Source of the DNA: a bacterium
GTDB lineage: Bacteria; Hydrothermota; 32-111
DNA length: 52,328 nucleotides
NCBI GenBank assembly: GCA_050239825.1
Contig: JBFXGO010000003.1
Span: forward strand, 21,277-73,604
Direction: 5' to 3'
Shown: positions 1 through 13,341 of the stretch, one piece after another
How positions within the stretch are numbered: the stretch's first letter is position 1
How the letters are laid out: the number at the start of each line of letters is the position of its first letter
Made by a program: the position numbers and the translations under genes
The notes under the pieces: model-generated
Seen by the model: only the letters and a program-made list of their open reading frames with translations
What the model was told of the DNA's origin: nothing
The model's database searches: none

Positions 1-272
1 AAAGCACGGTTTTTTATTTTGGGAGCGGGATTCGAACTAAACGCGAAGCGTTTAGAAACCACAGGTTTCACCCAGAAGGGGTTCGTTGTTCATTCTGATG
101 AACCATGAAATCATCCCTGCTCCAAAGGAAAATATAGACCGTGCGAAAGCACGGTTTTTTATTTTGGGAGCGGGATTCGAACTAAACGCGAAGCGTTTAG
201 AAACCACAGGTTTCACCCAGAAGGGGTTCGTTGTTCATTCTGATGAACCATGAAATCATCCCTGCTCCAAAG
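1..272. repeat. Tandem ~145-bp structured repeat (about 2 units; begins before the window)
   Basis: 1-127 is repeated at 146-272 with one T-run difference. Units contain the hairpins GACCGTGC-GAAA-GCACGGTT and TAAACGC-GAA-GCGTTTA, and GGGATTCGAAC (antisense of a tRNA T-arm). Confidence 0.9.
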
Positions 273-416
273 TCAATTGGAAAAAGAGGAAGCTGGCAAA
301 CCCTCTGCGAGGGCTCGCCAGCCTATTTTCAACGCACATGTGACTTTTTTGTCTTTATTCTGCGAAGCAGAATGCCAGAAGCGGGCTTTTCCTCATTTTA
401 AATATGTAAAATTTGC

Positions 417-444
417 TTGACTTCATTATATTTATTAGTATAAT
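417..444 (+). promoter_or_regulatory. sigma70-type promoter of the HTH-mod operon
   Basis: TTGACT (417-422), 16-bp spacer, TATAAT (439-444), upstream of ATG 486. Confidence 0.6.
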
Positions 445-485
445 AATGTAAATGATATTTGTCATCAACATAATGATATCAAAAT

Positions 486-698
486 ATGGAAAATAGTCAA
501 TGGAATAAGTTAGGTAAAAAGATCAAAGGTTTGCGGATGCAGCTCGAGCTTTCGCAAGACGAATTTGCAAGAAAAGCAGATATTCCTTATACAACATTAA
601 CTAAAATCGAAACGGGTGTAATAAAAAAGCCATCAGTATTTGTCGTGGCTAAAATTGCCAAAGGTCTCAATATCAGCATTGACGAGTTAATAAAATAA
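486..698 (+). CDS. XRE-family HTH regulator, likely controller (C) protein of the R-M operon
   Basis: 70 aa with the HTH_3 pattern IKGLRMQLELSQDEFARKADIPYTTLTKIETG; directly upstream of mod. Confidence 0.8.
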   Translation: MENSQWNKLGKKIKGLRMQLELSQDEFARKADIPYTTLTKIETGVIKKPSVFVVAKIAKGLNISIDELIK

Positions 699-711
699 AT
701 AGGTTTTCAAT

Positions 712-3700
712 ATGACTAAAGAACAAAAATTTTATAAAGCCCTGCAAGATGTATTTATCGGCGCCAAAATTGAAGGAAAAGGTGGCTTTGTTAATTTGAT
801 GAGAATAAAATCAAATTACTACTGCAAAATTGAAGATATTCTCAAAAAAGATATTGAGGCGGCTTTAAAGAGCCACCCTAAATTTAGAGATGAACTTTTT
901 GACAAACTCTATTCCTTTTTTAACCGCTATTTTACGGAAAGCGGATCAATCTATTTCAATTCAACACCATTTCATAACAATATCTACGAAAAGGTTTATA
1001 CTGATGAAAAGGATGTCATTCTCTTCTGGAAAACACAAATGCTCTACTATGTCAAAACTGACCGGATTTTCAGAAGTTTGCCGGTTGAGTTCCCTTCTGA
1101 TAGAGGGGTGGACGCCAAAGGCGGACAGGGTGTTTTTAAGTTTTACTTTGATGTTTCAAAAATAGAAGGCAAAAAAGCAAATGAAAAACGATCTTTGATT
1201 TTTGAGTTAAATAAAATCCATGAAGACGGCACAATTGTTCTTGACGTTCAATACTCCGAAAAAGGTACAAAAACAAAACAAGACGAGATACTAAAAGCTA
1301 TCAAGAAAAAAGACATTGCTATTACTGAAGAACAATTAGAACGCGCCTTTAGAGTTTTTGAAAAGCAAAGTGAAGTTGATTTCTTTATCAATAAAAACGC
1401 TAAAGCATTCTTGCAGGAGCAATTTAAACTCTGGAGCTATCAGTATTTTTGGGAAGGAGCAGGAACACCCCTGACCCCTCTACAAGAGGGGAATGCGTGG
1501 AGTGCTGATAGAGTCAATCAACTGCAAATACTTAAAGATATTGCTTTCAAGATTATTGATTTTATTAGTCAGTTTGAAGATGAGCTGGTAAAACTCTGGA
1601 ACAAGCCGAAGTTTGTCAAAAACTCAAATTATGTAATTACGCTGGATAGAATTATGAACACCCTGCCTGCTATCGCAGACACCCCTCTAGAAGAGGGGAA
1701 TAATTCCCCTTCTTTGAAGGGGTGGCAGACGAAGCCTGACGGGGTAGTCTTGATTACAAAGATACTCAATCATCCTAATATAAATGAACAAATAAAAGAA
1801 TGGCAGGAGCTTGGAATAGTAGATGAAAACTTTAAAGTAACTGATGTTTTTGAAAATTCCCCTTCTTTGAAGGGGTGGCAGGCGAAGCCTGACGGGGTAG
1901 TTAAATGGAATGAATTACCATTCGATACAAAACTTAAAGAAAGAGCAAAAGAATTACGAAAAGCAGGGAATCTATCCGAGGTTTTATTTTGGAATCAGGT
2001 TAAAAACAAACAATTTTTAGGTCTTGATTTTGACAGACAGAAAATTATTGGAAATTATATTGTTGATTTTTACTGTAAAAATTTAGGAGTTGTTGTTGAG
2101 ATTGATGGAGTAAGTCATGATGGTAAGGTAGAACGTGATAAGCAAAGAGATGACTATTTTAAAAATCTTGGGTTGAAAGTTATCCATATACTTGATACTG
2201 ATGTAAAGAATAATTTGTCAGGAGTAATGGAGTTTCTGGAACGGGAATTTAAACACCCCGTCCCTTTGGGACACCCCTCTACAAGAGGGGAATTTAACCC
2301 CGTCCTTTCGGGACACCCCTCTATAAGAGGGGAATTTAAGCACCTGCCCATTGATACCAAGTATTTCAAAGATTTAGAGCTTGAAATTTTGAGTCAGTTT
2401 GACGATTTAGATAAATCTTTAGACGGTTGGCTGATAAAGAGCGAAAACTATCAGGCATTAAATACAATTCTGCCGAAATTCAAAGAAAAAGTACAGACAA
2501 TCTACATTGACCCGCCGTTTAATTTAGATTCTTCCGACCAGTTTTTATACCGCACAAATTACAAAGATGCTAACTGGGCAACATTACTTGAAAACCGCCT
2601 GAAACTTGCCAAAGATTGGCTGAATAAAAAGGGAAGTATTTTTGTGAGATGTGATTACAACGGGAATTGGATTGTGAGATGCTTGATGGATGAAATTTTA
2701 CCAACTGAAAATAAGAGAGAAATAATTTTAAGGAAAGCAAATAGTCAAGGAGCATTGGGTAATTTTAATCCTGCGAATGAATCACTTTTTTTCTATCAAA
2801 AAGATGAAAGTTTATATTATTTTAAACCAATATTTAAGACGAGAAATAGAGAAATTAGGTGGGTAAATGCAGTTTCCCCAAAAGAAAATAAAGATGCAAA
2901 TAAAATTGTAATTAATGGTAAAGAATATATTGCTCCAAAAGGTAACCATTGGCGTTTTTCACAAGAGAAATTTAATAAATTACTATCAGAAAACCGAATT
3001 AGAATTAGTCCTGATACCGGCTTACCGCAGTATTTAGAATCCGAAGAAGTACCACTTGATACAAACTGGACAGATATGCAAGGATATTCTTTTAGTCATG
3101 GCTTTTCAACCGAAAACGCTGAAGTAATTTTACAAAGGGTTATTGACTGTTCTTCAGAAAAAAATTTTATTATTTTTGACTTCTTCCTCGGCTCTGGCAC
3201 AACAACAGCAGTAGCACATAAACTTGGCAGAAAATGGATTGGGGTAGAAATGGGTGAGCATTTTTATACTGTAGTTTTACCAAGAATGAAAAAAGTTTTG
3301 GCTTATGATAAATCAGGAATTTCAAAAGAATTGAAAACACCCCGTCAGACTTCGTCTGACACCCCTCTAAAAGAGGGGAATTATGAAGGCGGCGGGTTTT
3401 TCAAATATTACGAACTTGAGCAATACGAGGAAGCACTGGCTAATTGCAAATATGAAGAAAGCGATTTATTTAATTCGCCTTCAAAAACTCCGTATCAGGA
3501 ATATGTCTTTATGAAAGACGAAAAAATGCTCAAAGCGTTGGAAATTGATTATGAAAATAACAAAGTTAAAGTTGATTTAACAAAACTTTACCTTAACACC
3601 CCGTCATCTAACGATGCCACCCCTCTTAAAGAGGGGAATATAGACATTGCCGAAACATTGTCTAATTTAACAGGTAAATGGATAAAGAAAATAACACCCC

Positions 3701-3810
3701 TACCCCCTCTACAAGAGGGGAATTATGAGGTGGAATTTGAAGATGGAACTAAAATTAATACAAAAAATTTAGATTATAAATTAATAAAACCATTAATTTG
3801 GTGGGAGTAA
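712..3810 (+). CDS. mod: Type III R-M DNA methyltransferase (Mod, beta class) with in-frame DUF559 domain and 10 hairpin-repeat insertions
   Basis: Catalytic motif IYIDPPFN precedes SAM-binding FDFFLGSGTT; AHKLGRKWIGVEMG; co-oriented with a Res-type gene. Confidence 0.85.
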   Translation: MTKEQKFYKALQDVFIGAKIEGKGGFVNLMRIKSNYYCKIEDILKKDIEAALKSHPKFRDELFDKLYSFFNRYFTESGSIYFNSTPFHNNIYEKVYTDEKDVILFWKTQMLYYVKTDRIFRSLPVEFPSDRGVDAKGGQGVFKFYFDVSKIEGKKANEKRSLIFELNKIHEDGTIVLDVQYSEKGTKTKQDEILKAIKKKDIAITEEQLERAFRVFEKQSEVDFFINKNAKAFLQEQFKLWSYQYFWEGAGTPLTPLQEGNAWSADRVNQLQILKDIAFKIIDFISQFEDELVKLWNKPKFVKNSNYVITLDRIMNTLPAIADTPLEEGNNSPSLKGWQTKPDGVVLITKILNHPNINEQIKEWQELGIVDENFKVTDVFENSPSLKGWQAKPDGVVKWNELPFDTKLKERAKELRKAGNLSEVLFWNQVKNKQFLGLDFDRQKIIGNYIVDFYCKNLGVVVEIDGVSHDGKVERDKQRDDYFKNLGLKVIHILDTDVKNNLSGVMEFLEREFKHPVPLGHPSTRGEFNPVLSGHPSIRGEFKHLPIDTKYFKDLELEILSQFDDLDKSLDGWLIKSENYQALNTILPKFKEKVQTIYIDPPFNLDSSDQFLYRTNYKDANWATLLENRLKLAKDWLNKKGSIFVRCDYNGNWIVRCLMDEILPTENKREIILRKANSQGALGNFNPANESLFFYQKDESLYYFKPIFKTRNREIRWVNAVSPKENKDANKIVINGKEYIAPKGNHWRFSQEKFNKLLSENRIRISPDTGLPQYLESEEVPLDTNWTDMQGYSFSHGFSTENAEVILQRVIDCSSEKNFIIFDFFLGSGTTTAVAHKLGRKWIGVEMGEHFYTVVLPRMKKVLAYDKSGISKELKTPRQTSSDTPLKEGNYEGGGFFKYYELEQYEEALANCKYEESDLFNSPSKTPYQEYVFMKDEKMLKALEIDYENNKVKVDLTKLYLNTPSSNDATPLKEGNIDIAETLSNLTGKWIKKITPLPPLQEGNYEVEFEDGTKINTKNLDYKLIKPLIWWE
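1088..1134 (-). repeat. In-frame double-hairpin element, reverse orientation (peptide FPSDRGVDAKGGQGV)
   Basis: Reverse complement AACACCCTGTCCGCCTTTGGCGTCCACCCCTCTATCAGAAGGGAACT fits the consensus AACACCCC-hairpin-CACCCCTCTnnnAGAGGGGAATT. Confidence 0.8.
1464..1494 (+). repeat. In-frame hairpin element, short form (TPLTPLQEGN)
   Basis: AACACCCCTGACCCCTCTACAAGAGGGGAAT. Confidence 0.85.
1657..1748. repeat. Two tail-to-tail in-frame hairpin elements (1657-1701 +, 1702-1748 -)
   Basis: AACACCCTGCCTGCTATCGCAGACACCCCTCTAGAAGAGGGGAAT followed by AATTCCCCTTCTTTGAAGGGGTGGCAGACGAAGCCTGACGGGGTAGT. Confidence 0.85.
1855..2336 (+). mobile_element. Putative autonomous element: DUF559/Vsr-like endonuclease domain flanked by inverted hairpin repeats, in frame within mod
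   Basis: 1903-2251 encodes LKERAKELRK...SEVLFW...RQKIIGNYIVDFYC...VVEIDGVSH...DKQRDDYF...GLKVIHI (DUF559 pattern). Left repeat 1855-1902 is reverse; right repeats 2252-2294 and 2296-2336 are forward. Confidence 0.7.
3336..3382 (+). repeat. In-frame double-hairpin element (TPRQTSSDTPLKEGN)
   Basis: AACACCCCGTCAGACTTCGTCTGACACCCCTCTAAAAGAGGGGAATT. Confidence 0.9.
3595..3639 (+). repeat. In-frame double-hairpin element (NTPSSNDATPLKEGN)
   Basis: AACACCCCGTCATCTAACGATGCCACCCCTCTTAAAGAGGGGAAT; absent from the duplicated mod tail at ~7280. Confidence 0.9.
3693..3724 (+). repeat. In-frame hairpin element, short form (TPLPPLQEGN)
   Basis: AACACCCCTACCCCCTCTACAAGAGGGGAATT; identical copy at 7341-7372. 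Confidence 0.9.
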
Positions 3811-3820
3811 AGATAAATTT

Positions 3821-5167
3821 ATGAGAAAAAATTATATGAATAATAAGATTGATTTTACAAAATCAAATATTTTGTTCATCTCAAATGAACAAATTGACAT
3901 TGAAGCTGAAGAATTCAAAAAGAATGGTGAATTTAATAAACAGAAAATTAGAGAAAAAGTCGAGCCGTGGCTAACAGCTGTATTTCAAAGTGAACATCTT
4001 TCTTTACTTATAGGTAGTGGATTGTCAATTGCCTTGTCTGGAAATAGCTCAATGATGAAAAGAATAGAATTTAGTGGAAATTACAAAGATAAAATCAAGC
4101 AAAAAGCAGAAGATGAAGCTAAAAAGATGGAGAGAGGTGTAGCCAATTTCGAAGATGATTTGAGGATTGCCATTGAACTTTTAAAAGGGTATGAAATTAT
4201 TGGGAATAATGATGAAGAAAAAAAATTGAAAATTGAAATTAACGAAGAGATAATAAAATTATTAAAGTCGATATTAGAAAATGAAAAAAAATTTTTAAAT
4301 ACTGATTCTAATAAAAGTCAAAACAATGAAAATGATAATCAAACAAACAATGATAGGGATCTTTTAAGATTACTTGAAAATTTTTTACTTAGTTTTTCTA
4401 CAAGAACTGCCACCAGAGATAGGTTAAATATTTTCACTACAAACTATGATAGATTTATAGAGTTGGGTTTAGACGAGGCTGGCATTCTTACTTTAGATAG
4501 ATTCATTGGAAAACTCAAGCCCATTATGCGCTTTCATCAAATTGAACTTGACTATCATTATAATCCCCCGGGAATCAGAGGAGAACCAAGGTATGTGGAA
4601 GGCGTTGTTCGATACACTAAATTACATGGTTCTGTTGATTGGCAATTTAAAGATGGGCAGATTATTAAAATTCCCCTGCCATTTGGTGCTGATGTTAATA
4701 ATGATTTCTTTAACGACCCTTACAATAAAGTAGTTATTTATCCAAACTCGGGCAAAGCCATAGAGACGGCATTTTTCCCATATTCAGAGCTTTTTCGTGA
4801 TTTTTCAACTGCTATCTGCCGAACAAATTCTGTTCTGGTTACCTATGGCTACGGTTTTGGTGATTCTCACATCAATAGAATTATAAAAGATATGCTAACC
4901 ATACCTTCAACACATCTTGTTATTATTTCTTATGATTCGGCTCAGGACAGAATTTCTAAATTTATTGAAAAATGCAATGAATCCCAGCTAACTTTGCTTA
5001 TTGGAAAAGAATTAGGGAACTTTGAAAACTTAGCAAATTATTATTTACCCAAACCAGCCATTGATAGAATTACCGACAGACAGGCACGGTTATTAGAAAA
5101 ACGAAAAGTTGTGTCACAAAAAGATTCACAAGATAAAGATTCTAAAAATGAAGAAGACAATGAATAA
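3821..5167 (+). CDS. SIR2-like NADase of a Sir2-HerA antiphage system
   Basis: SLLIGSGLS, IFTTNYD, KLHGSVDW and GYGFGDSHIN motifs; its stop overlaps the herA start. Confidence 0.85.
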   Translation: MRKNYMNNKIDFTKSNILFISNEQIDIEAEEFKKNGEFNKQKIREKVEPWLTAVFQSEHLSLLIGSGLSIALSGNSSMMKRIEFSGNYKDKIKQKAEDEAKKMERGVANFEDDLRIAIELLKGYEIIGNNDEEKKLKIEINEEIIKLLKSILENEKKFLNTDSNKSQNNENDNQTNNDRDLLRLLENFLLSFSTRTATRDRLNIFTTNYDRFIELGLDEAGILTLDRFIGKLKPIMRFHQIELDYHYNPPGIRGEPRYVEGVVRYTKLHGSVDWQFKDGQIIKIPLPFGADVNNDFFNDPYNKVVIYPNSGKAIETAFFPYSELFRDFSTAICRTNSVLVTYGYGFGDSHINRIIKDMLTIPSTHLVIISYDSAQDRISKFIEKCNESQLTLLIGKELGNFENLANYYLPKPAIDRITDRQARLLEKRKVVSQKDSQDKDSKNEEDNE

Positions 5168-7262
5168 GAATTTTGATAACATAAGACATAGATCAATAGG
5201 TACTGTTGAATTTGTCTCTCCAAAAGAGGTTAAAGTACTTCTCGAAACCGATGCTCCATTAAGTACCTCACTTAATACAGGAGCCCCACAACAGTTTCCA
5301 CGAATCAATGGCATTTTACTTATCCCAAATGAATCCGGAGCTTTAATAGGTATAATAACATGGATAGGTATCGAATATTCACCATATCCTAAGCGTAAGG
5401 GGTACAAGGACTTTGATTTGATTGATTTGCCTTTTCCATTGAGAAAACTTTCTCTTTCCCCTTTAGGTACATTAAAAGAAAAAGAAAATGGCTACGAAAT
5501 AGAGCGAGGGGTTTATAGTTATCCATCAGTGGGTGATATTGTCATAATTCCAAGTGAGGAACAATTAAAAGCCATAGTTCAAAACAAAGACGAAAACGCA
5601 CGAATTAAAATTGGTCTCTCACCACTGGCAGCAAATGCTTCTATATTTGTGGATCCGGATAAATTATTTGGCCGGCATCTGGCAGTACTCGGAAATACCG
5701 GAAGTGGAAAATCATGCTCAGTAGCGGGTCTTATCAGGTGGTCTATTGAATCCGCTAAAAGTAAAATTGATGAAGATGCTAAAGGGCAAAATCAAGATAC
5801 TGAAAAGCAAAATTATAAAAGCGTAAATGCGCGATTTATTATTTTTGATCCAAATGGTGAATATGGAACCTGTTTTGAAGGTCTTGGAAATGTAAAAAAA
5901 TATGAAGTAAAAATCAAAGACGGTGGCGCTGATCAACTACTAAAAGCACCTTCCTGGATGTGGAATAGCTGGGAATGGGCTTCTATTGCTCAAGCAAGTG
6001 CAAAAACACAAAGACCTATACTACGAAGAGCATTGAGAGAAATTAAGAATGCTGATATCAAAAAAGATGATGATACTTATATCCAATTTAGAAATTATCT
6101 TGTGAGTTTGAAAATAAGTTTGCTTAATCGTCAAAAAAATGGAGCAAAACTTTCGGAATTTCCTGATAAGCAAAATTATGGTGAATTCTTAGAAGGCACC
6201 AAAAGATCTTTAAATACATTTGATAACATAGAAAATCAAGATTATAAGGACATTAAACAAAATTTAATTGATAAGTTAGACGAAATATTAAAAGAACATC
6301 CGAAAAATGATAAGGGATATTACCCTGCATTTTCATTAAATGAAGTAAATCCATTATTAGAGATTTTAAATGCTACTGAAAGTTCTATAGGTAAATTAAA
6401 TCCCTACGAAGGTCCAGATGAAGATTCCCCAGTATTTTTTAAAAATGAAGAATTTTTAGCTCATATAGAAAGATTATCCCAAGAAGCCAATCAACAACAA
6501 TATCTTGATTTCTTTTTAATGAGAGTTAGAAGTTTATTTACTGACAAAAGAATTTCCTCAGTGATAAATACAGAAACCGAAGAGGAAATAACACTTGGAA
6601 ATTGGCTAAATGAATATATTGGTGACAATAGCAATAATCCATCTATTAGCATAATTGATTTATCACTTTTACCATCAGAAATACTTTATTTAATCGTCTC
6701 TGTTATGGCTCGTATTATTTTTGAAGCGCATCATCGTTATAAAAAGCATACAGGACAAACCCTCCCAACAGTTTTAGTAGTAGATGAAGCACATAATTTA
6801 ATTAAACACTACGAAATAGAAGATGATAATATTTCTGCACAGCGGTTATGCACTCAAATATTTGAAAAAATAGCAAAAGAAGGAAGGAAATTTGGAGTAG
6901 GTTTGGTTTTAGCTTCCCAGCGACCGTCTGAACTTTCACAAACAGTATTGTCTCAATGTAATACCTTTTTATTGCATAGGATTGTAAGTGATCGCGACCA
7001 GGAAATGGTAAAAAAATTAGTCCCCGATACAATGGGAAGTATCCTAAATGAATTATCTGTATTGCCTTCGCGCAAAGCAATTTTATTAGGCTGGTCAACA
7101 CCTATTCCCGTGCTTGTAGAAATGAGCGAATTACCTGAAGCCCAAAGACCAAAATCCAAAGATCCTGAATTTTGGGATGTATGGACGAACAAAGAAACAA
7201 GGAAAATAAATTGGAAAGAAATTGCTAATGAATGGCAACAAAAAAAAGACGAAAATAATTAG
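5160..7262 (+). CDS. herA: HerA/FtsK-family ATPase (Sir2-HerA partner)
   Basis: HLAVLGNTGSGKS (Walker A), FDPNGEY, VVDEAH (Walker B), AKEGRKFGVGLVLASQRPSELS. Start placed at ATG 5160, overlapping the SIR2 stop. Confidence 0.88.
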   Translation: MNKNFDNIRHRSIGTVEFVSPKEVKVLLETDAPLSTSLNTGAPQQFPRINGILLIPNESGALIGIITWIGIEYSPYPKRKGYKDFDLIDLPFPLRKLSLSPLGTLKEKENGYEIERGVYSYPSVGDIVIIPSEEQLKAIVQNKDENARIKIGLSPLAANASIFVDPDKLFGRHLAVLGNTGSGKSCSVAGLIRWSIESAKSKIDEDAKGQNQDTEKQNYKSVNARFIIFDPNGEYGTCFEGLGNVKKYEVKIKDGGADQLLKAPSWMWNSWEWASIAQASAKTQRPILRRALREIKNADIKKDDDTYIQFRNYLVSLKISLLNRQKNGAKLSEFPDKQNYGEFLEGTKRSLNTFDNIENQDYKDIKQNLIDKLDEILKEHPKNDKGYYPAFSLNEVNPLLEILNATESSIGKLNPYEGPDEDSPVFFKNEEFLAHIERLSQEANQQQYLDFFLMRVRSLFTDKRISSVINTETEEEITLGNWLNEYIGDNSNNPSISIIDLSLLPSEILYLIVSVMARIIFEAHHRYKKHTGQTLPTVLVVDEAHNLIKHYEIEDDNISAQRLCTQIFEKIAKEGRKFGVGLVLASQRPSELSQTVLSQCNTFLLHRIVSDRDQEMVKKLVPDTMGSILNELSVLPSRKAILLGWSTPIPVLVEMSELPEAQRPKSKDPEFWDVWTNKETRKINWKEIANEWQQKKDENN

Positions 7263-7274
7263 TAACGTGAGCGA

Positions 7275-7470
7275 GCTTTACCCAAGCATAGACATTGCCG
7301 AAACCTTGTCTAACTTAACCGGCAAATGGATAAAGAAAATAACACCCCTACCCCCTCTACAAGAGGGGAATTATGAGGTGGAATTTGAAGACGGAACTAA
7401 AATTAATACAAAAAATTTAGATTATAAATTAATAAAACCATTAGTTTGGTGGGAAAGGTCGAATAAATAA
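7275..7470 (+). pseudogene. Duplicated 3' end of mod (second allele fragment)
   Basis: 7288-7454 matches 3640-3806 with 6 mismatches in 167 bp; encodes LYPSIDIAETLSNLTGKW...KPLVWWE. Confidence 0.9.
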
Positions 7471-7493
7471 AATTTAATTTAGGAGGATTAACT

Positions 7494-7916
7494 ATGAAAA
7501 AAAGAATATTTATAAGTTTCGATTATGAACATGACAAAAATTACAGATATTTGCTAACTGCTTTAGCTAAAAACCCGCGATCTGATGTTGAGTTTACTGA
7601 TGTGACGCCGGAAGAAATTCAAAGTTATGATGTTAGCCGGATTAAGGCTGTTTTGACGAAGAAAATAAAAGAAGCCACGCACACATTAGTAATTGTTGGG
7701 AAATATGCAAATAGTTATCATCCGGATAGGGATGAAATTGGCGAACGTAACTGGCAATGGTGGGAAATCAATAAGAGTGATGAGGAAGGGAAAGGATTTA
7801 TTGCTGTAAAAATAGAATCGTCTAACGAACCCCCAGAACCCTTATATGGGAAAGGCGCAACTTGGGCTAATAGCTTTACCGTTGACGCGATTGTAAATGC
7901 AATTGACAGAGCTTAA
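7494..7916 (+). CDS. Stand-alone TIR-domain protein (ThsB/MTH538-like)
   Basis: KRIFISFDYEHD at the N-terminus, TLVIVGK, and NWQWWEI with the putative catalytic Glu; RBS AGGAGG upstream. Confidence 0.8.
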   Translation: MKKRIFISFDYEHDKNYRYLLTALAKNPRSDVEFTDVTPEEIQSYDVSRIKAVLTKKIKEATHTLVIVGKYANSYHPDRDEIGERNWQWWEINKSDEEGKGFIAVKIESSNEPPEPLYGKGATWANSFTVDAIVNAIDRA

Positions 7917-7918
7917 TT

Positions 7919-8569
7919 ATGTCAATAGACGATAATACAAAACTTGAGGTTTTACACGATCACTACAAAGAAAGTTTTTTGCATATTCGCGAACGAGAAA
8001 AACAGCGCGACCGGCTGTTTATGTTTGTAATTGCTCTAATTGGTGCTTTATTTCTTGAAATACAATATTCCGATGTTTTTTCGAATATCTTGGGGAATAT
8101 TAAATTAGAATTCGTAGAGTTGGATATAAGCATAATGCCCATTTCAATCTTCCTAAGCGTAACTTGGACTTATCTATTTGTTATTGTATTAAAGTATTGT
8201 CAATCCTCGATTCTTATTGAAAGGCAATATGACTATCTGCATTGTTTGGAGGATCAAATATCCAAACTTTTTGACGACCAGAATATTTATTGTCGAGAAG
8301 GCAAAGCTTACCTTAATAAATATCCTCTTTTTTCTGATTTAGTTTGGATTTTTTATATACTTTTATTTCCAACTATAGTAATACTTTCGGTTGGGCTAAT
8401 TATTTATCTCGAAGGGTATAAAATTGAAGCACCATTATATCATTTAATTTATGATTCAATTTTAACAATAGGGATAAGCATATCATTTATATTGTATAGG
8501 TTTCATCCTTTAGTGAAGAATATACTATTGAAAATCAAAAATAAAATAGTGAAAAATCGAAATGTCTAA
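7919..8569 (+). CDS. Uncharacterised ~4-TM membrane protein, candidate TIR-linked effector
   Basis: Four hydrophobic segments separated by a charged loop; starts 2 bp after the TIR stop and overlaps the res start. Confidence 0.7.
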   Translation: MSIDDNTKLEVLHDHYKESFLHIREREKQRDRLFMFVIALIGALFLEIQYSDVFSNILGNIKLEFVELDISIMPISIFLSVTWTYLFVIVLKYCQSSILIERQYDYLHCLEDQISKLFDDQNIYCREGKAYLNKYPLFSDLVWIFYILLFPTIVILSVGLIIYLEGYKIEAPLYHLIYDSILTIGISISFILYRFHPLVKNILLKIKNKIVKNRNV

Positions 8570-8732
8570 ATTATATTTACAAGACATCGTAAAAGACATT
8601 TCTTTGGAAAACTTGCCGGCGAAGTGGCAAGGGTTTGATTTTGAGCAGTTTTCAAAAGACAAAACACTCTTTGACTTTCAGCAGGATGCGCTTAAAAATG
8701 CTTTGCGTGGACTATGGCTTTATTTCAAAGGA

Positions 8733-8774
8733 AACACCCCGTCCCTTCGGGACACCCCTCTACAAGATGGGAAT
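8733..8774 (+). repeat. In-frame double-hairpin element in res (NTPSLRDTPLQDGN)
   Basis: AACACCCCGTCCCTTCGGGACACCCCTCTACAAGATGGGAAT. Confidence 0.85.
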
Positions 8775-10308
8775 GAATTGAAGCAAAGCTTGTTTAATCA
8801 CTATAAATTAAATGGATTTGAAGAAAACTTTGACTACGATTTGAAAAAGAAACAAGACAGCAAAACCGCAAAATATCTTTTAGAATACGACAAAGATTAT
8901 CCAGTGGAAGATAATAAGATTTCTTTTGCACATTTTATCAATCGAATGAGTTTTTGGATGGCAACTGGTTCCGGTAAAACGCTGATTATTGTTAAATTGA
9001 TTGAGCTTTTAGGACTGCTTATTTCAAAAGGTGAAATTCCCCCAAACGATATTCTATTTTTAGCACACAAGCACACAGAGATGACCTTTTGGACCAATTC
9101 AAAAATCATGTTGATGAATTTAACAGCTTTAATTTTGACACAAAGATAAATCTCAGAAATTTGAGGGATTATGAGAGCGTAAAGCGCGAAAATGCCCTGC
9201 CATTTGCCAAAAACGAGATTACTGTTTTTTATTATCGTTCCGATTTGATTTCTGATGAGCAGAAAGAAAAAATCGTCAATTTCAGAAATTACGATAATAG
9301 TGGCAAGTGGTACATTCTTTTGGACGAAGCCCACAAAGGCGATAAAGAAGACAGCAAACGACAGATTTTATACTCCATACTATCAAGAAACGGATTTTTA
9401 TTTAATTTCTCTGCTACCTTTACCGACCCGAGGGACTTTGCGACCTGCGCCTTTAACTTCAATCTTTCAAGGTTCGTTGAAGAAGGATACGGCAAGCATA
9501 TTTATGTATCCTCTGCCGAAATTGGCGCCTTTCGCGGACGAGGCGATTTTTCTCCGATTGAAAAACAAAAAATCGTTTTAAAATCGCTTTTGCTTTTAAC
9601 TTACATCAACAAGTATTTTGAAAAAATCAGGAAAGTTAATAACGCTTTATATCACCACCCCCTGCTTCTAACGCTGGTTAATTCCGTAGATGTGGAAGAA
9701 TCTGATTTGGAGTTATTTTTTAGAGAGTTAGAAAAAGTAGCGAAGAACGAAATTAGGGCAGATTTGCTCAATAAAGCAAAACACGAACTTGTTCAAGAAT
9801 TTAGCGACTATCCATCATTTGAGTTTGAGGAGTTGGAATGTGTAGTAAATGCCGATTTAATTTCAAAGTTAGATTACAAAGATATTTTGAAATATGTTTT
9901 GAATGCCAAAACTTCGGGCAACATTGAAGTTCTAAAAATCCCCGGCAATAGGAATGAATTGATTTTTAGGTTAATGACGGCTGATAAACCGTTTGCGTTA
10001 ATCAAAATCGGCGATATTTCCGGCTGGCTGAAAGATAAACTTGAGGGATATGAAATAAACGAAAGTTTTGAAAACGAAAGTTATTTCAGACGAATAAATC
10101 ACGATGATTCCGACATAAATATTTTAATGGGTTCACGCTCTTTTTATGAGGGCTGGGATTCTAACAGGCCAAACATACTTTTGTTTGTAAATATTGGAGT
10201 TGGAAGCGACGCCAAAAAATTCGTTCTGCAATCGGTCGGCAGAGGCGTAAGAATAGAGCCAAAGAAACACCAAAGAAAGCGGCTTCAAAATTTGTTCAAC
10301 GCAGTAAA

Positions 10309-10397
10309 AACACCCCGTCAGAATTCCCCTTCTATGAAGGGGTGTCAGGCGAAGCCTGACGGGGTAGTTTCTGACACCCCTCTAAAAGAGGGGAATT
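10309..10397. repeat. Nested pair of in-frame hairpin elements in res
   Basis: Forward copy AACACCCCGTCAG...TCTGACACCCCTCTAAAAGAGGGGAATT, with a reverse copy (10322-10369) in place of its inner loop. Confidence 0.85.
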
Positions 10398-11793
10398 TAG
10401 AGCAGTTGTTTGAAAAGGTTAAAAATCTGATTTTGCCTCTTGAGAGCTTGTTTATTTTTGGGACTAACGCAGAAAATTTGAAAGAGATAATGGCAACTCT
10501 AAAAGCAGAAAAGCAAGATAAAAATTTGGGCGAAGCTTTTATCCTTAATCCTGAAGTACAAAATCGTTTACTTTTAATACCGGTATATAAAACTACTGAA
10601 AGGATTTTTGCCGAAGAAAAAGACCCGCAAAAATATCCTATTAGCACTGATGATTTTAATATAACATCTCAATTCTACGACTTTATAGGTGATAAAATCA
10701 CTTTGGCTAAATATGATTGTGAAGTGAAAGTTTTAAAGAAAGCAAAAGAAAGTTTTTCTGTGAAAAATAAAAATAGATATTATACGCTTGGCAAAGATGA
10801 ACCATCGCTTTTTGAACCGGAATTAATTCTGGACCGGATTTTTGATTATCTTGGAGTTAAAAGCAAAGAGTTTGAGAAGTTCAAGGAGTTGGAAAATGAA
10901 ATCGTGCATTTTAGAAAGGTTAGATTTAGCAATGCTGAAAAATACGAAGAAATAAGAAAGAAAATTGATTTCATGAAGCAATATCCTGAAAAGAAAAAAG
11001 AGTTAGACGAAAATTATGGCAAAATATCCGCAGATAAATATGCTGAGCAGTTGAAGCTATTTGAAGAAACAGGAAAGTATGAAGTCAAAAACCAAAAAAT
11101 CAAAATCAAGTATTTGGCTAACCATTATTATATTCCAGTGATCGTTTCAGAAACCGAAAAAATTGATTATCTCAATCATATTATCAATGTTGATAGCGAG
11201 GTAAGATTTATTGAGCAACTGGAAGAATATCTGGCCAAACCAAATAATGTATTTACGCAATTTGATTGGTGGATGTTTTCAAAGCTTGACCAAACGCTGG
11301 ACGAAGTATTTATCCCTTATTACAATCCAAAAGAAAATAGAATTGATAATTATCACCCTGACTTTATTTTTTGGATGCAGAAAGGGAAGGAATACCTAAT
11401 TCTGTTTGCGGATCCAAAAGGTACAAGCTTCGCCACTTATCAGCATAAAGTAGATGGTTACAAAAGAATTTTCGAAAGTAAGATGTTTTCGTACAACGGA
11501 TATGTAATTTCAACCAATTTGCTTCTGTATACAAAAAGCATAGCCGAAGTTGGAGAAGGATACAGAAAGTACTGGTTTGATAACTTCGTTGATTTTGCAG
11601 ATAAACTACTAATAAGAAAGAATTTGCCGCCAAGCTCGGCAAAGCCGAGCAATCCGCCGAAGGCGGATTAAAAACTTGGAATCGTCCTTTCCGTTTCCGT
11701 TTAAAGGCGAGGCGGGCGGAAGGGGGATTTGGGGGGAATTCCGCCCGCCGAGACCGTTAATGAAATCGGTTCGAATTTTTTCAAATACGTCCA

Positions 11794-11842
11794 GAAAATA
11801 TAGACCGTGCGAAAGCACGGTTTTTTATTTTGGGAGCGGGAT
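11794..11842. repeat. Right-hand remainder of the 145-bp repeat unit interrupted by the island
   Basis: 49 bp identical to 128-176. Confidence 0.9.
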
Positions 11843-11896
11843 ATGGCTGAAACAAGTTCAGCCGCTTAAGATTAAGTACAGGAAGAATGCACAAAC

Positions 11897-12460
11897 AAAG
11901 CGGCGAAGCGGAGTGTGTGAGCTGACGCTATGCCCGCGTGTAGCCCCAGCTCAATCTTCAATTATCAATAATCAATCAACAATAACAATAAACTGATAGA
12001 CCCTTCACGATAGTCATAACCATAGAGGCGTTCAGGGTGACACTATTGATTAAGATTTTGTCTTTACAGTAATCTTCACAAAGTTCTGGTGCAACCCGAT
12101 ACCTCTATCATGTGCGTTCGCGCACATTACACCCGCGCCAATGCTTTGTGAAGATTCAATCAATTAAATAACTTATTGAAAATGTAAGCTACAAGTCGGC
12201 GAGGACGCTCCGCGCAGACGCCCATCAAGTGGTTCTCTCCTTGCTCCGCTAACCCATCTTGATAAAGCGGCGAAGCGGAGTGTGTGAGCCGGCGCTTGTC
12301 TTACCTGCCGCCACCAAACAATCTTTAATAATCAATAAACAATAAACTGATAGACCCTTCACGATAGTCATAACCATAGAGGCGTTCAGGGTGACACAGT
12401 TGAGTAGGATTTTGTCTTTACTGACTACTGAGTGTGTGAGCCGGCGCTACACCTGCCAGC
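11897..12460. repeat. Intergenic direct repeats (11897-12067, 12264-12421, partial ~12430-12448) with REP-like palindromes
   Basis: Shared AAAGCGGCGAAGCGGAGTGTGTGAGC and AACAATAAACTGATAGACCCTTCACGATAGTCATAACCATAGAGGCGTTCAGGGTGACAC. Confidence 0.8.
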
Positions 12461-12564
12461 GGCCAGTAAAAAATGCAGCTTTTTGAAACCACCGTCCCTT
12501 TATAAAGCATATGTATCTTGTTGAATCATTGACATTTGATTATTTATATGATATTTTATATATT

Positions 12565-13341
12565 ATGAAAAATGTTATTTTTACAGTCAGTTTGTTCATT
12601 ATATTCCTATACATTGCAAGTGATGAATGTCCGTTTGGCTTAAAAGACGACCCTTATCCGGGCAAGTGCGGAAGGTATGTTGATGAAGACAACAATGATG
12701 TGTGCGACCTTTCGGAGAATGCTATTGTTGATTCTTTTGAAGCAAAGGATTCTACTTATGAGTCAGAAGAAGTGAAAGAGAATGTAATTCTTGCTGACAA
12801 TGAAGGTGAAGGAGAAAAAAACAGGCACGGCAAGAATAACGATAATCACGATGAAGAGCAGAGTAAAGATGCAACCGCAGAATCATTGATTGTTCCTGAA
12901 ATAACCGATATACAGCTTAGTAAAAACAGCAATTCGGACAAAGAGAAAACGCAGATAAAAGACCTCTTCGGCGGTAAAAAGAAAAAACAAGCAAAAACAT
13001 TTTCTGACAAATACTTTTTATCGGTTCTTCTCCCGCTGTTTATATTTGCCATGATTTTCTCATATTTATCAAAGAAGAAAAGAATATCTGTAGACATATA
13101 CAGTATAAATAGGTGGACAAACTTAGCCATTCTTATTGCATTTGCAGTAACGGCTTTTACTTCAATAATGCTTGTACTGGCTGAATACAAACTAATTCAA
13201 GTGAAGAATCTTTCAACACTTATTTTCATTCACAGTTTTACGGGAATTATATTCCTGCTTTTGTCGCTTCTGCACATTTATCTGAAATGGGAGTTCTATG
13301 TGACTTTTTTCAATTGTTACATTAAAAAGGACTACAAATGA
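12565..13341 (+). CDS. Membrane protein: signal/TM segment, Cys-rich motif, acidic linker, 3 C-terminal TM helices (DUF4405-like)
   Basis: CPFGLKDDPYPGKCGRYVDEDNNDVCDLS; C-terminal TMs with His residues (IHSFTG, LHIYLKW). Start moved to ATG 12565 because a TTGACA/TATTTT promoter lies at 12529-12557. Confidence 0.6.
   Translation: MKNVIFTVSLFIIFLYIASDECPFGLKDDPYPGKCGRYVDEDNNDVCDLSENAIVDSFEAKDSTYESEEVKENVILADNEGEGEKNRHGKNNDNHDEEQSKDATAESLIVPEITDIQLSKNSNSDKEKTQIKDLFGGKKKKQAKTFSDKYFLSVLLPLFIFAMIFSYLSKKKRISVDIYSINRWTNLAILIAFAVTAFTSIMLVLAEYKLIQVKNLSTLIFIHSFTGIIFLLLSLLHIYLKWEFYVTFFNCYIKKDYK

Follow-up and report, generated by a model that had tools for sequence, protein, structure and literature searches.

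The 52,328-nucleotide (nt) stretch analysed here, hereafter the window (contig JBFXGO010000003.1 of assembly GCA_050239825.1, positions 21,277 to 73,604 of the forward strand, from a bacterium of the Hydrothermota), carries a Type III restriction-modification locus whose mod and res genes contain copies of a short palindromic repeat, and whose mod gene also contains a complete DUF559 nuclease domain bracketed by inverted copies of that repeat. A first-pass annotation, made from the letters of the window alone, had proposed that repeat and domain form a mobile system. We found that the two are associated across phyla, and comparison of sequences marks DUF559 as the strongest candidate for an enzyme behind the spread of a class of bacterial repeats that has long gone unexplained. 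The genes and sites concerned are given below (aa, amino acids; S, site in mod; R, site in res). Fractions give the homolog rows in which a site is empty, scored over rows that match the anchors among 79 mod loci and 80 res loci, with the window row counted in the total except at R1.

712..3810, + strand: Type III mod, 1032 aa, DUF559 at aa 407-509; empty homologs have about 780-830 aa.
1088..1134, - strand: S1; net gain 12 aa, about 7 nt replaced; empty in 51/61, the empty allele occurring also in a second data set.
1464..1494, + strand: S2, a short copy without hairpin 1; net gain 10 aa; empty in 65/68.
1657..1748, both strands: S3, two copies joined by their tails, + (1657-1701) and - (1702-1748); net gain 28 aa; empty in 44/54.
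1855..2336, + strand: S4, the DUF559 cassette; net gain 149 aa, about 11 codons replaced; empty in 12/17.
Parts of the cassette, tails facing outward: left repeat 1855-1901 (-), nuclease about 1903-2251, right repeats 2252-2294 and 2296-2336 (+).
1930..2238, + strand: DUF559 domain, Vsr-like fold, with the conserved E, D, E-x-D-G-x-x-H and D..R intact.
3336..3382, + strand: S5; net gain 14 aa; empty in 34/39.
3595..3639, + strand: S6; net gain 14 aa, AAYA on both sides (4-base overlap); empty in 38/43.
3693..3724, + strand: S7, a short copy; net gain 8 aa; empty in 27/33.
7341..7372, + strand: copy within the duplicated mod 3' end; no independent insertion, and in neither mod nor res.
8562..11671, + strand: Type III res, in two frames of 195 and 860 aa.
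8733..8774, + strand: R1; 50 nt replace 14 nt, net gain 12 aa; homolog rows empty in 12/12.
10309..10397, both strands: R2, a + copy whose hairpin 1 holds a - copy (10322-10368) at its apex; net gain 28 aa; empty in 29/32.

The 14 copies named by the first-pass annotation were all recovered, in both orientations and in four reading frames (+1, TP..EGN; +2, HP..RGEF; -1, NSPS.KG..DGVV; -2, FPSDRG), none containing a stop codon in the frame of its host. They had been counted as 14 separate insertions into restriction-modification genes; they reduce to nine insertion sites, seven in mod and two in res, with the copy at 7341 lying in a duplicate outside both genes. Copies 1657 and 1702 share one site, 1855, 2252 and 2296 bound the cassette, and 10322 sits within the loop of 10309. 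Alignment of Mod and Res to homologs, the check that had been proposed, demonstrated in-frame indels against empty homologs at all nine sites, and that the copies are insertions is, on these alignments, virtually certain. At the junctions, 0 to about 33 target bases are replaced, a short AAT or AAC is often overlapped, and the tail often falls on a target AAT; since the empty alleles belong to diverged genes, the breakpoints are known only approximately. No target-site duplication of fixed length was found at the sites: S6 has its 4-base overlap and the others lose bases. Contigs from RNA runs at these sites represent the empty alleles of relatives, with differing letters between the joints; runs with a small share were left out of the evidence. 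None of the mod inserts touches a catalytic motif or the variable recognition region, the DPPF (aa 600-603) and FxGxG motifs of Mod are intact, and solved Mod structures align with the catalytic core only.

Several sites hold more than one arrangement. The - copy at S3 is identical to the left end of the cassette at 46 of 47 positions, and homologs carry at S3 either the whole DUF559 cassette or Ssn-type repeats. At R2, loci L208 and L225 have the outer copy alone, and nesting at the same hairpin apex was also found in L023, L006, L031 and L047, in at least two distinct types. An assembly artefact as the source of tandem or nested copies is ruled out by an independent assembly, probably of the source sample, which is identical over 1868-2565 and 10275-10720.

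The nuclease was assigned by Pfam to DUF559 (E 6e-26), and its matches in the Protein Data Bank are 3hrl and 3r3p (the latter at E 0.005); Pfam gives DUF559 as the sole nuclease in Mod, where no GIY-YIG domain (cd10448) was found. The inverted copies do bracket a complete domain, as had been claimed. The ratio of nonsynonymous to synonymous substitution rates (dN/dS) between the window domain and five Mod-fused copies is 0.05-0.10, one further copy being saturated. Among the best 120 Mod homologs, a set whose ranking is biased toward DUF559 carriers, 46 have the domain (23 at S3 and 23 at S4) and 74 lack it; on the nuclease tree, no fewer than four changes between S3 and S4 are required by well-supported branches, and a second nuclease clade (9 rows, support 100/100) pairs with a different repeat peptide. 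The host-gene tree, dominated by the variable recognition region and by ranked-hit bias, was not used for event counts. Short copies are present in 38 of the 46 Mods with DUF559 and in 21 of the 74 without. In L047 the S4 junctions are kept and the nuclease is absent, and at one Pedobacter intergenic site the 18 sequences parsed of 25 fetched comprise 10 empty alleles, 2 with short copies only and 6 with the full cassette. The in-frame hosts of the 12 fusions scanned were LeuS (3), HsdR (3), MetH (2), acetyl-CoA synthetase, HsdM, Type ISP and one unassigned protein. These comparisons indicate that the cassette moves as a unit, and the occupation of several unrelated sites agrees with the element-like mobility first suspected. 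One table row of a published survey, in the part accessible, records an enrichment of DUF559 proteins at predicted programmed inversions (PMC9881135), which fits the inverted flanks and is not used here as support.

Read on its G-rich strand, the repeat unit consists of a pyrimidine arm, a 3-nt loop, a purine arm, a linker or a free second hairpin, and a G-tract that mirrors the purine arm. Hairpin 2 was predicted in 13/13 folded stretches, with z < -3 in 10/13 and weak folding at 1088, 1702 and 8733. By the rules for antiparallel triads, in which G lies with a G-C pair and A or T with an A-T pair, the head of the repeat, left unpaired by folding programs, is a mirror image of the purine arm of hairpin 2. 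Covariation was assessed over all loci in 460 distinct hairpins, of which 225 had a following G-run and 190 were kept after removal of tail-side readings. Both variable triads were compatible in 170 of these 190 copies (mean 85 and maximum 102 in 5000 shuffles), and the third strand matched in 58 of the 59 copies with a changed stem: purine AGA is accompanied by TGT in 106/131, AAG by TAG in 15/16, AGG by TGG or AGG in 23/24, and AAA by TAT, TAA or ATT in 19/19. Two stem classes occur in the window, AAG/TAG at 1702, 1855 and 10322 and AGA/TGT in most others. The G-tract ends in GTGT, GTAG, GTGG or GTAT according to the stem, with no fixed terminal tag, and three window copies end in GTAG because the end follows the stem. 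Mirror symmetry with this tolerance of A or T would not be made by simple duplication or by Watson-Crick pairing. Longer-stem triplex motifs were found at other DUF559 loci, and we consider it probable that an intrastrand triplex is the fold recognised by DUF559.

The association of repeat and nuclease was examined from both sides. A repeat-side scan covered 80 loci with DNA of at least 122 stretches, selected by the repeat pattern; among the matches listed, DUF559 lay within 200 bp of a repeat in 15 of the 80 loci (about 11 independent contexts), tails faced outward in 16 of 17 flanking copies, and none of the 132 frames neighbouring the 80 repeat loci encoded a RAYT/Y1, GIY-YIG or DDE transposase, in keeping with the original claim that no DDE or HUH enzyme is involved. 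No HUH Y1 transposase was found in the island that carries mod and res. The baseline for DUF559 is 2-7 matches per 5.5-6.7 Mb. In the nuclease-side test, which took the best-scoring DUF559 loci by Pfam alone from Bacteroidota- and Chloroflexota-centred samples and applied a loose motif finder, a triplex motif lay within 300 bp of DUF559 in 28 of 30 Bacteroidota-centred loci versus 0 of 57 windows 1 kb away, and in 18 of 22 Chloroflexota-centred loci versus 2 of 39; own-genome control windows contained the motif in 2 of 1422. These data make it highly likely that repeat and DUF559 are a cognate pair. Of the two findings named beforehand as fatal to the proposal, neither was obtained: the peptides are not ancestral, and repeat-DUF559 linkage was found across phyla. 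In genome G005, inverted doublets about 99 bp apart (e.g. C9:5430-5547) have a REPIN-like look, and no DUF559 was found in that draft genome; G080 has intergenic clusters (L337 and L340-L359) that mix the triplex repeat, Ssn-like hairpins and heptamer tandem repeats.

The first-pass annotation had also treated frame preservation as a property of the element and had pictured the nuclease as living fused to other proteins, with enrichment of copies in coding sequences. Linkage to DUF559 stood up to the genome search and enrichment in coding sequences did not: elsewhere, only 11 of 86 copies among the matches listed lie in frames of at least 250 aa and most copies are intergenic, while in 20 stretches of G080, of about 40 places, no copy lies in such a frame. 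Fusion of DUF559 is a minority state (12/30 and 3/22 loci in the two samples). Intrinsic frame keeping was rejected as an explanation; units are stop-free in 221 of 324 frames versus 53% at random, and 30 of 54 lengths are divisible by 3, the unit boundary being arbitrary. At mod loci, mod itself (162 kb) had 48 copies, res (118 kb) 8 and the flanks (572 kb) 9, 2 of the latter at the margin of the mod match; the copies share ancestry and the loci were picked by likeness to the query. All 58 genic copies in mod and res lie in long open frames. We infer that the in-frame state reflects survival under selection, insertion itself being blind to frame. Stand-alone DUF559 genes also read through the upstream repeat, and the cassette may therefore be pre-adapted to fusion. 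At least three other palindrome families are found in frame in the same mod loops, at S3 (L018, L005, L037), S1 (L015, L048) and S6 (L001, L013, L022); the one in L018 is an NTS-like repeat that matches 27 of 28 bases of the consensus of Chenal et al. Unrelated palindromes in the same loops thus suggest that mod is a tolerant, mobile sink. A Pedobacter icmF-type gene (L282-L293) has an in-frame copy of constant length in 12 genomes whose DNA symmetry is decaying, a repeat on its way to becoming an ordinary protein loop.

On balance we favour, with moderate confidence and from comparison of sequences, a small selfish element composed of the Vsr-fold nuclease DUF559 and its own repeat, moving by nicking and copying. 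During replication or transfer, single-stranded DNA would allow the unit to fold into a hairpin clasped by its third strand; DUF559 would bind the folded repeat and nick beside it, as SsnA does beside its own hairpin; and the free end would prime at a short A/T-rich microhomology, where template switching would copy the repeat or the whole cassette into place. Such copying would therefore leave imprecise replacement junctions and nest new copies in existing ones. Recombination between copies could then delete the nuclease, leaving solo forms, or shift it between loops; with insertion blind to frame, only in-frame copies in tolerant stretches of mod and res would last; and a horizontally moving mod-res pair would be the vehicle that brings copies into an otherwise repeat-free genome. 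That DUF559 itself drives the movement is favoured by a slightly narrower judgement. More tentatively still, and with real doubt about the whole, DUF559 might be a triplex-reading, single-stranded-DNA-specific mobiliser and the missing enzyme of BoxC/PIT repeats. It would then be a third nuclease fold, besides HUH and GIY-YIG, in charge of a dedicated repeat family; it would stay active while fused in Mod and seed neighbouring mod and res loops, with a preference for cutting existing copies at their apex.

Several observations weigh against this interpretation. All of its support is comparative, with movement deduced from it, and to our knowledge DUF559 has no known strand-transfer chemistry. 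The copies behind the covariation are related and fall into four or five stem classes, with a handful of compensated switches rather than 190 independent events, and 35 of the 225 rows had been removed as tail-side readings; dS is close to saturation in the dN/dS test; and the correlation between DUF559 and short copies in Mod is confounded by common ancestry, with several family copies missed by the regular expression. G005 and G083 have 50 and 11 pattern matches and no DUF559 was found in either, both assemblies being incomplete. The DUF559 of G080 has a different repeat and sits inside a mixed repeat cluster, and therefore does not clearly explain the 46 matches of that genome. Orientation varies by DUF559 subfamily, the layout of the window recurring in 15 of 29 loci and several being opposite, and the repeat is confined to the island in this genome although its nuclease looks intact. 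Finally, footprinting by Holder et al. saw little triplex in vivo, as far as the accessible text goes (PMC4666352).

Four other explanations were weighed. The one that survives best, which we still regard as unlikely, is that DUF559 recognises the repeat and does not move it: it would act as a repeat-guided single-stranded DNA nuclease that protects or polices, while the host spreads the copies through recombination, slippage and gene conversion where a triplex stalls polymerase. SsnA cuts near its own repeat and modulates transformation, and its mobility is only hypothesised in the accessible text (PMC11893778); likewise, polymerase is stopped in vitro by triplex motifs, which also mark loci that are unstable, according to the accessible parts of the triplex study (PMC4666352). 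The imprecise junctions fit host repair as well, and there are the repeat-rich genomes in which DUF559 was not detected. However, host processes would have to place whole cassettes, with ends set by the repeats, at unrelated targets, and bursts such as the 46 matches in G080, versus 0-3 in 13 family-level relatives, look like active spread.

Improbable in our estimation is a transposase of the RAYT or IS200 TnpA type, encoded elsewhere, that moves the repeats while DUF559 is cargo cutting empty alleles in the manner of a homing endonuclease or TnpB. The 3r3p match recalls the grouping of DUF559 with Vsr and the EDxHD homing endonuclease I-Bth0305I, in the accessible parts of the sources (PMC3424549, PMC3239194), and the doublets of G005 resemble REPINs, but the neighbouring frames listed held no such transposase, the targets are many and unrelated, no extra DNA-binding domain is present, the nuclease clade follows the type of repeat and not the target, and target bases are lost at the junctions. 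We give very little credence to removal of the inserts from RNA or protein like introns or inteins, with the frame incidental: Vsr-like nucleases are known in both settings, in the accessible text of one source (PMC3424549), but positions 1-13000 gave no Rfam match and Pfam no intein domain, the unbroken frame of all genic mod and res copies is needless for RNA splicing, and the icmF copy decays at constant length. Domestication of DUF559 as a Vsr-like methylase partner, with the peptides as adaptive linkers, is just as improbable and already largely refuted, since its frequent fusions with restriction-modification proteins and purifying selection are outweighed by the close Mods that lack the domain, the two loops occupied, peptides read in four frames, and the same cassette type in LeuS, MetH and acetyl-CoA synthetase and between genes.

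The element we favour works like Ssn/SRM or RAYT/REP systems and, by tests of the defining enzyme, belongs to neither. Ssn/SRM systems, as described in the accessible text of Chenal et al. 2025 (PMC11893778), which mentions neither DUF559 nor Vsr there, have a small single-domain nuclease gene and dispersed, oriented hairpin repeats with a conserved unpaired flank in a layout like that of insertion sequences; here, too, oriented hairpin repeats flank the nuclease gene to which they belong. They differ in having GIY-YIG where we find a Vsr-like fold and a CGTC tag where we find a triplex motif, and fused read-through is seen here. BoxC/PIT/TMECO repeats share the pyrimidine arm, loop, purine arm and third G-rich strand and are likewise dispersed, mostly intergenic and at variable loci, whereas the present repeat has a shorter 7-bp stem, an optional linker hairpin and in-frame genic copies (PMC4666352). 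In the accessible parts of Holder et al. 2015 (PMC4666352), E. coli copies are always intergenic and no partner enzyme is named, BoxC/PIT repeats having lacked one since the 1990s; a triplex was demonstrated with oligonucleotides, by circular dichroism and nuclear magnetic resonance, only for TMECO. The first-pass annotation was thus right about a short in-frame palindrome and missed both the triplex unit of BoxC/PIT type and the analogy with Ssn/SRM. REP/RAYT REPtrons, intragenic REPs and Rickettsia RPEs provide further parallels, in the accessible text (PMC3733652), in palindromes flanking a dedicated DNA-cutting gene, doublets and in-frame copies. In-frame palindromic insertions absent from orthologs, which define RPEs, are present here; unlike REPtrons, the element has no GTAG/CGTC tag and no HUH tyrosine transposase, and its in-frame insertions include the gene of the enzyme.

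EDxHD homing endonucleases such as I-Bth0305I offer a Vsr-like nuclease as a selfish gene, with acidic and His residues that are conserved here too (PMC3239194, accessible part), but the present element is bounded by repeats, has many targets that are unrelated to one another, and lacks an intron, an intein and an N-terminal DNA-binding extension. The ShiLan phage methylase also carries an unspliced nuclease insert in a DNA methylase, in this case an HNH nuclease out of frame (PMC11855218, accessible part). No description of a DUF559-repeat element was found in the open-access literature, subscription papers and supplements being outside the scope of that search. New here are the occupancy of two sites in one gene, nesting at the apex, replacement junctions, and a mod-res pair as carrier into a repeat-free genome.

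A bacterial biological reader of intrastrand DNA triplexes has not been established so far. A nuclease of about 115 residues with a cognate substrate of 30-47 nt and natural compensatory variants makes the questions of the partner enzyme and of the triplex reader testable with oligonucleotides. If the proposal is true, proteins would have a route to gain loops and whole domains without splicing, mobile restriction-modification genes would be vehicles and sinks for several repeat families, and DUF559 would be a second family of sequence-specific single-stranded DNA nucleases, with the same value as a tool that is claimed for Ssn.

The remaining features concern the island in which mod and res lie.

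3821..7262, + strand: SIR2-HerA defence pair, between the two copies of the mod 3' end, repeat-free.
7288..7454, + strand: duplicate of the mod 3' end, 167 nt, 96% identical to 3640-3806, holding copy 7341-7372.
11791..11842, + strand: right island boundary, a 52-bp direct repeat of the tRNA-Gln 3' end sequence just upstream of the window.

Within the 2.1-Mb, 99% complete genome, the core repeat motif (at most 2 mismatches) is confined to 1088-10397, as had been stated, except for a single 2-mismatch match on contig C14; a reversed-pattern control gave 0 matches, and 13 genus- and family-level relatives had 0-3. The mod-fused domain is the only strong DUF559 match genome-wide, and the mod-res region has a GC content of 34% versus 40% for the genome. 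In a congener, mod and res are absent between the downstream host gene and an att-like remnant that lies some 370 bp from it; together with the low counts in relatives, this argues that the repeats came in with the tRNA-Gln island, and they have not spread since in this genome. The frame of res is shifted by an 8-nt tandem duplication near 9062-9077, which is absent from 60/60 homolog rows and involves no repeat; restriction is probably off owing to it, and the duplication could be a reversible switch or plain decay.

The mod 3' end copies at 3640-3806 and 7288-7454 flank SIR2-HerA as if the pair had entered by recombination at the end of mod, and in some RNA-run contigs of relatives mod is joined straight to res. 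A ThsB-like TIR gene and then a predicted membrane protein of 216 aa, which had no Pfam or PADLOC match, occupy 7494-8569 as a candidate TIR-effector defence pair. The last 14 codons of res (11628-11671) are a different palindrome, followed past the stop by a cluster of G-rich hairpins (11690-11770). Positions 1-272 hold tandem 145-nt copies of the tRNA-Gln 3' remnant, adjoining an assembly gap; the T-loop of the remnant is broken by a short palindrome, and the same interrupted remnant was found in the congener. At 11895-12400 lies the host's own dispersed repeat of about 150 bp, unrelated to the triplex repeat, with more than 100 BLAST matches over many contigs and further matches in congeners.

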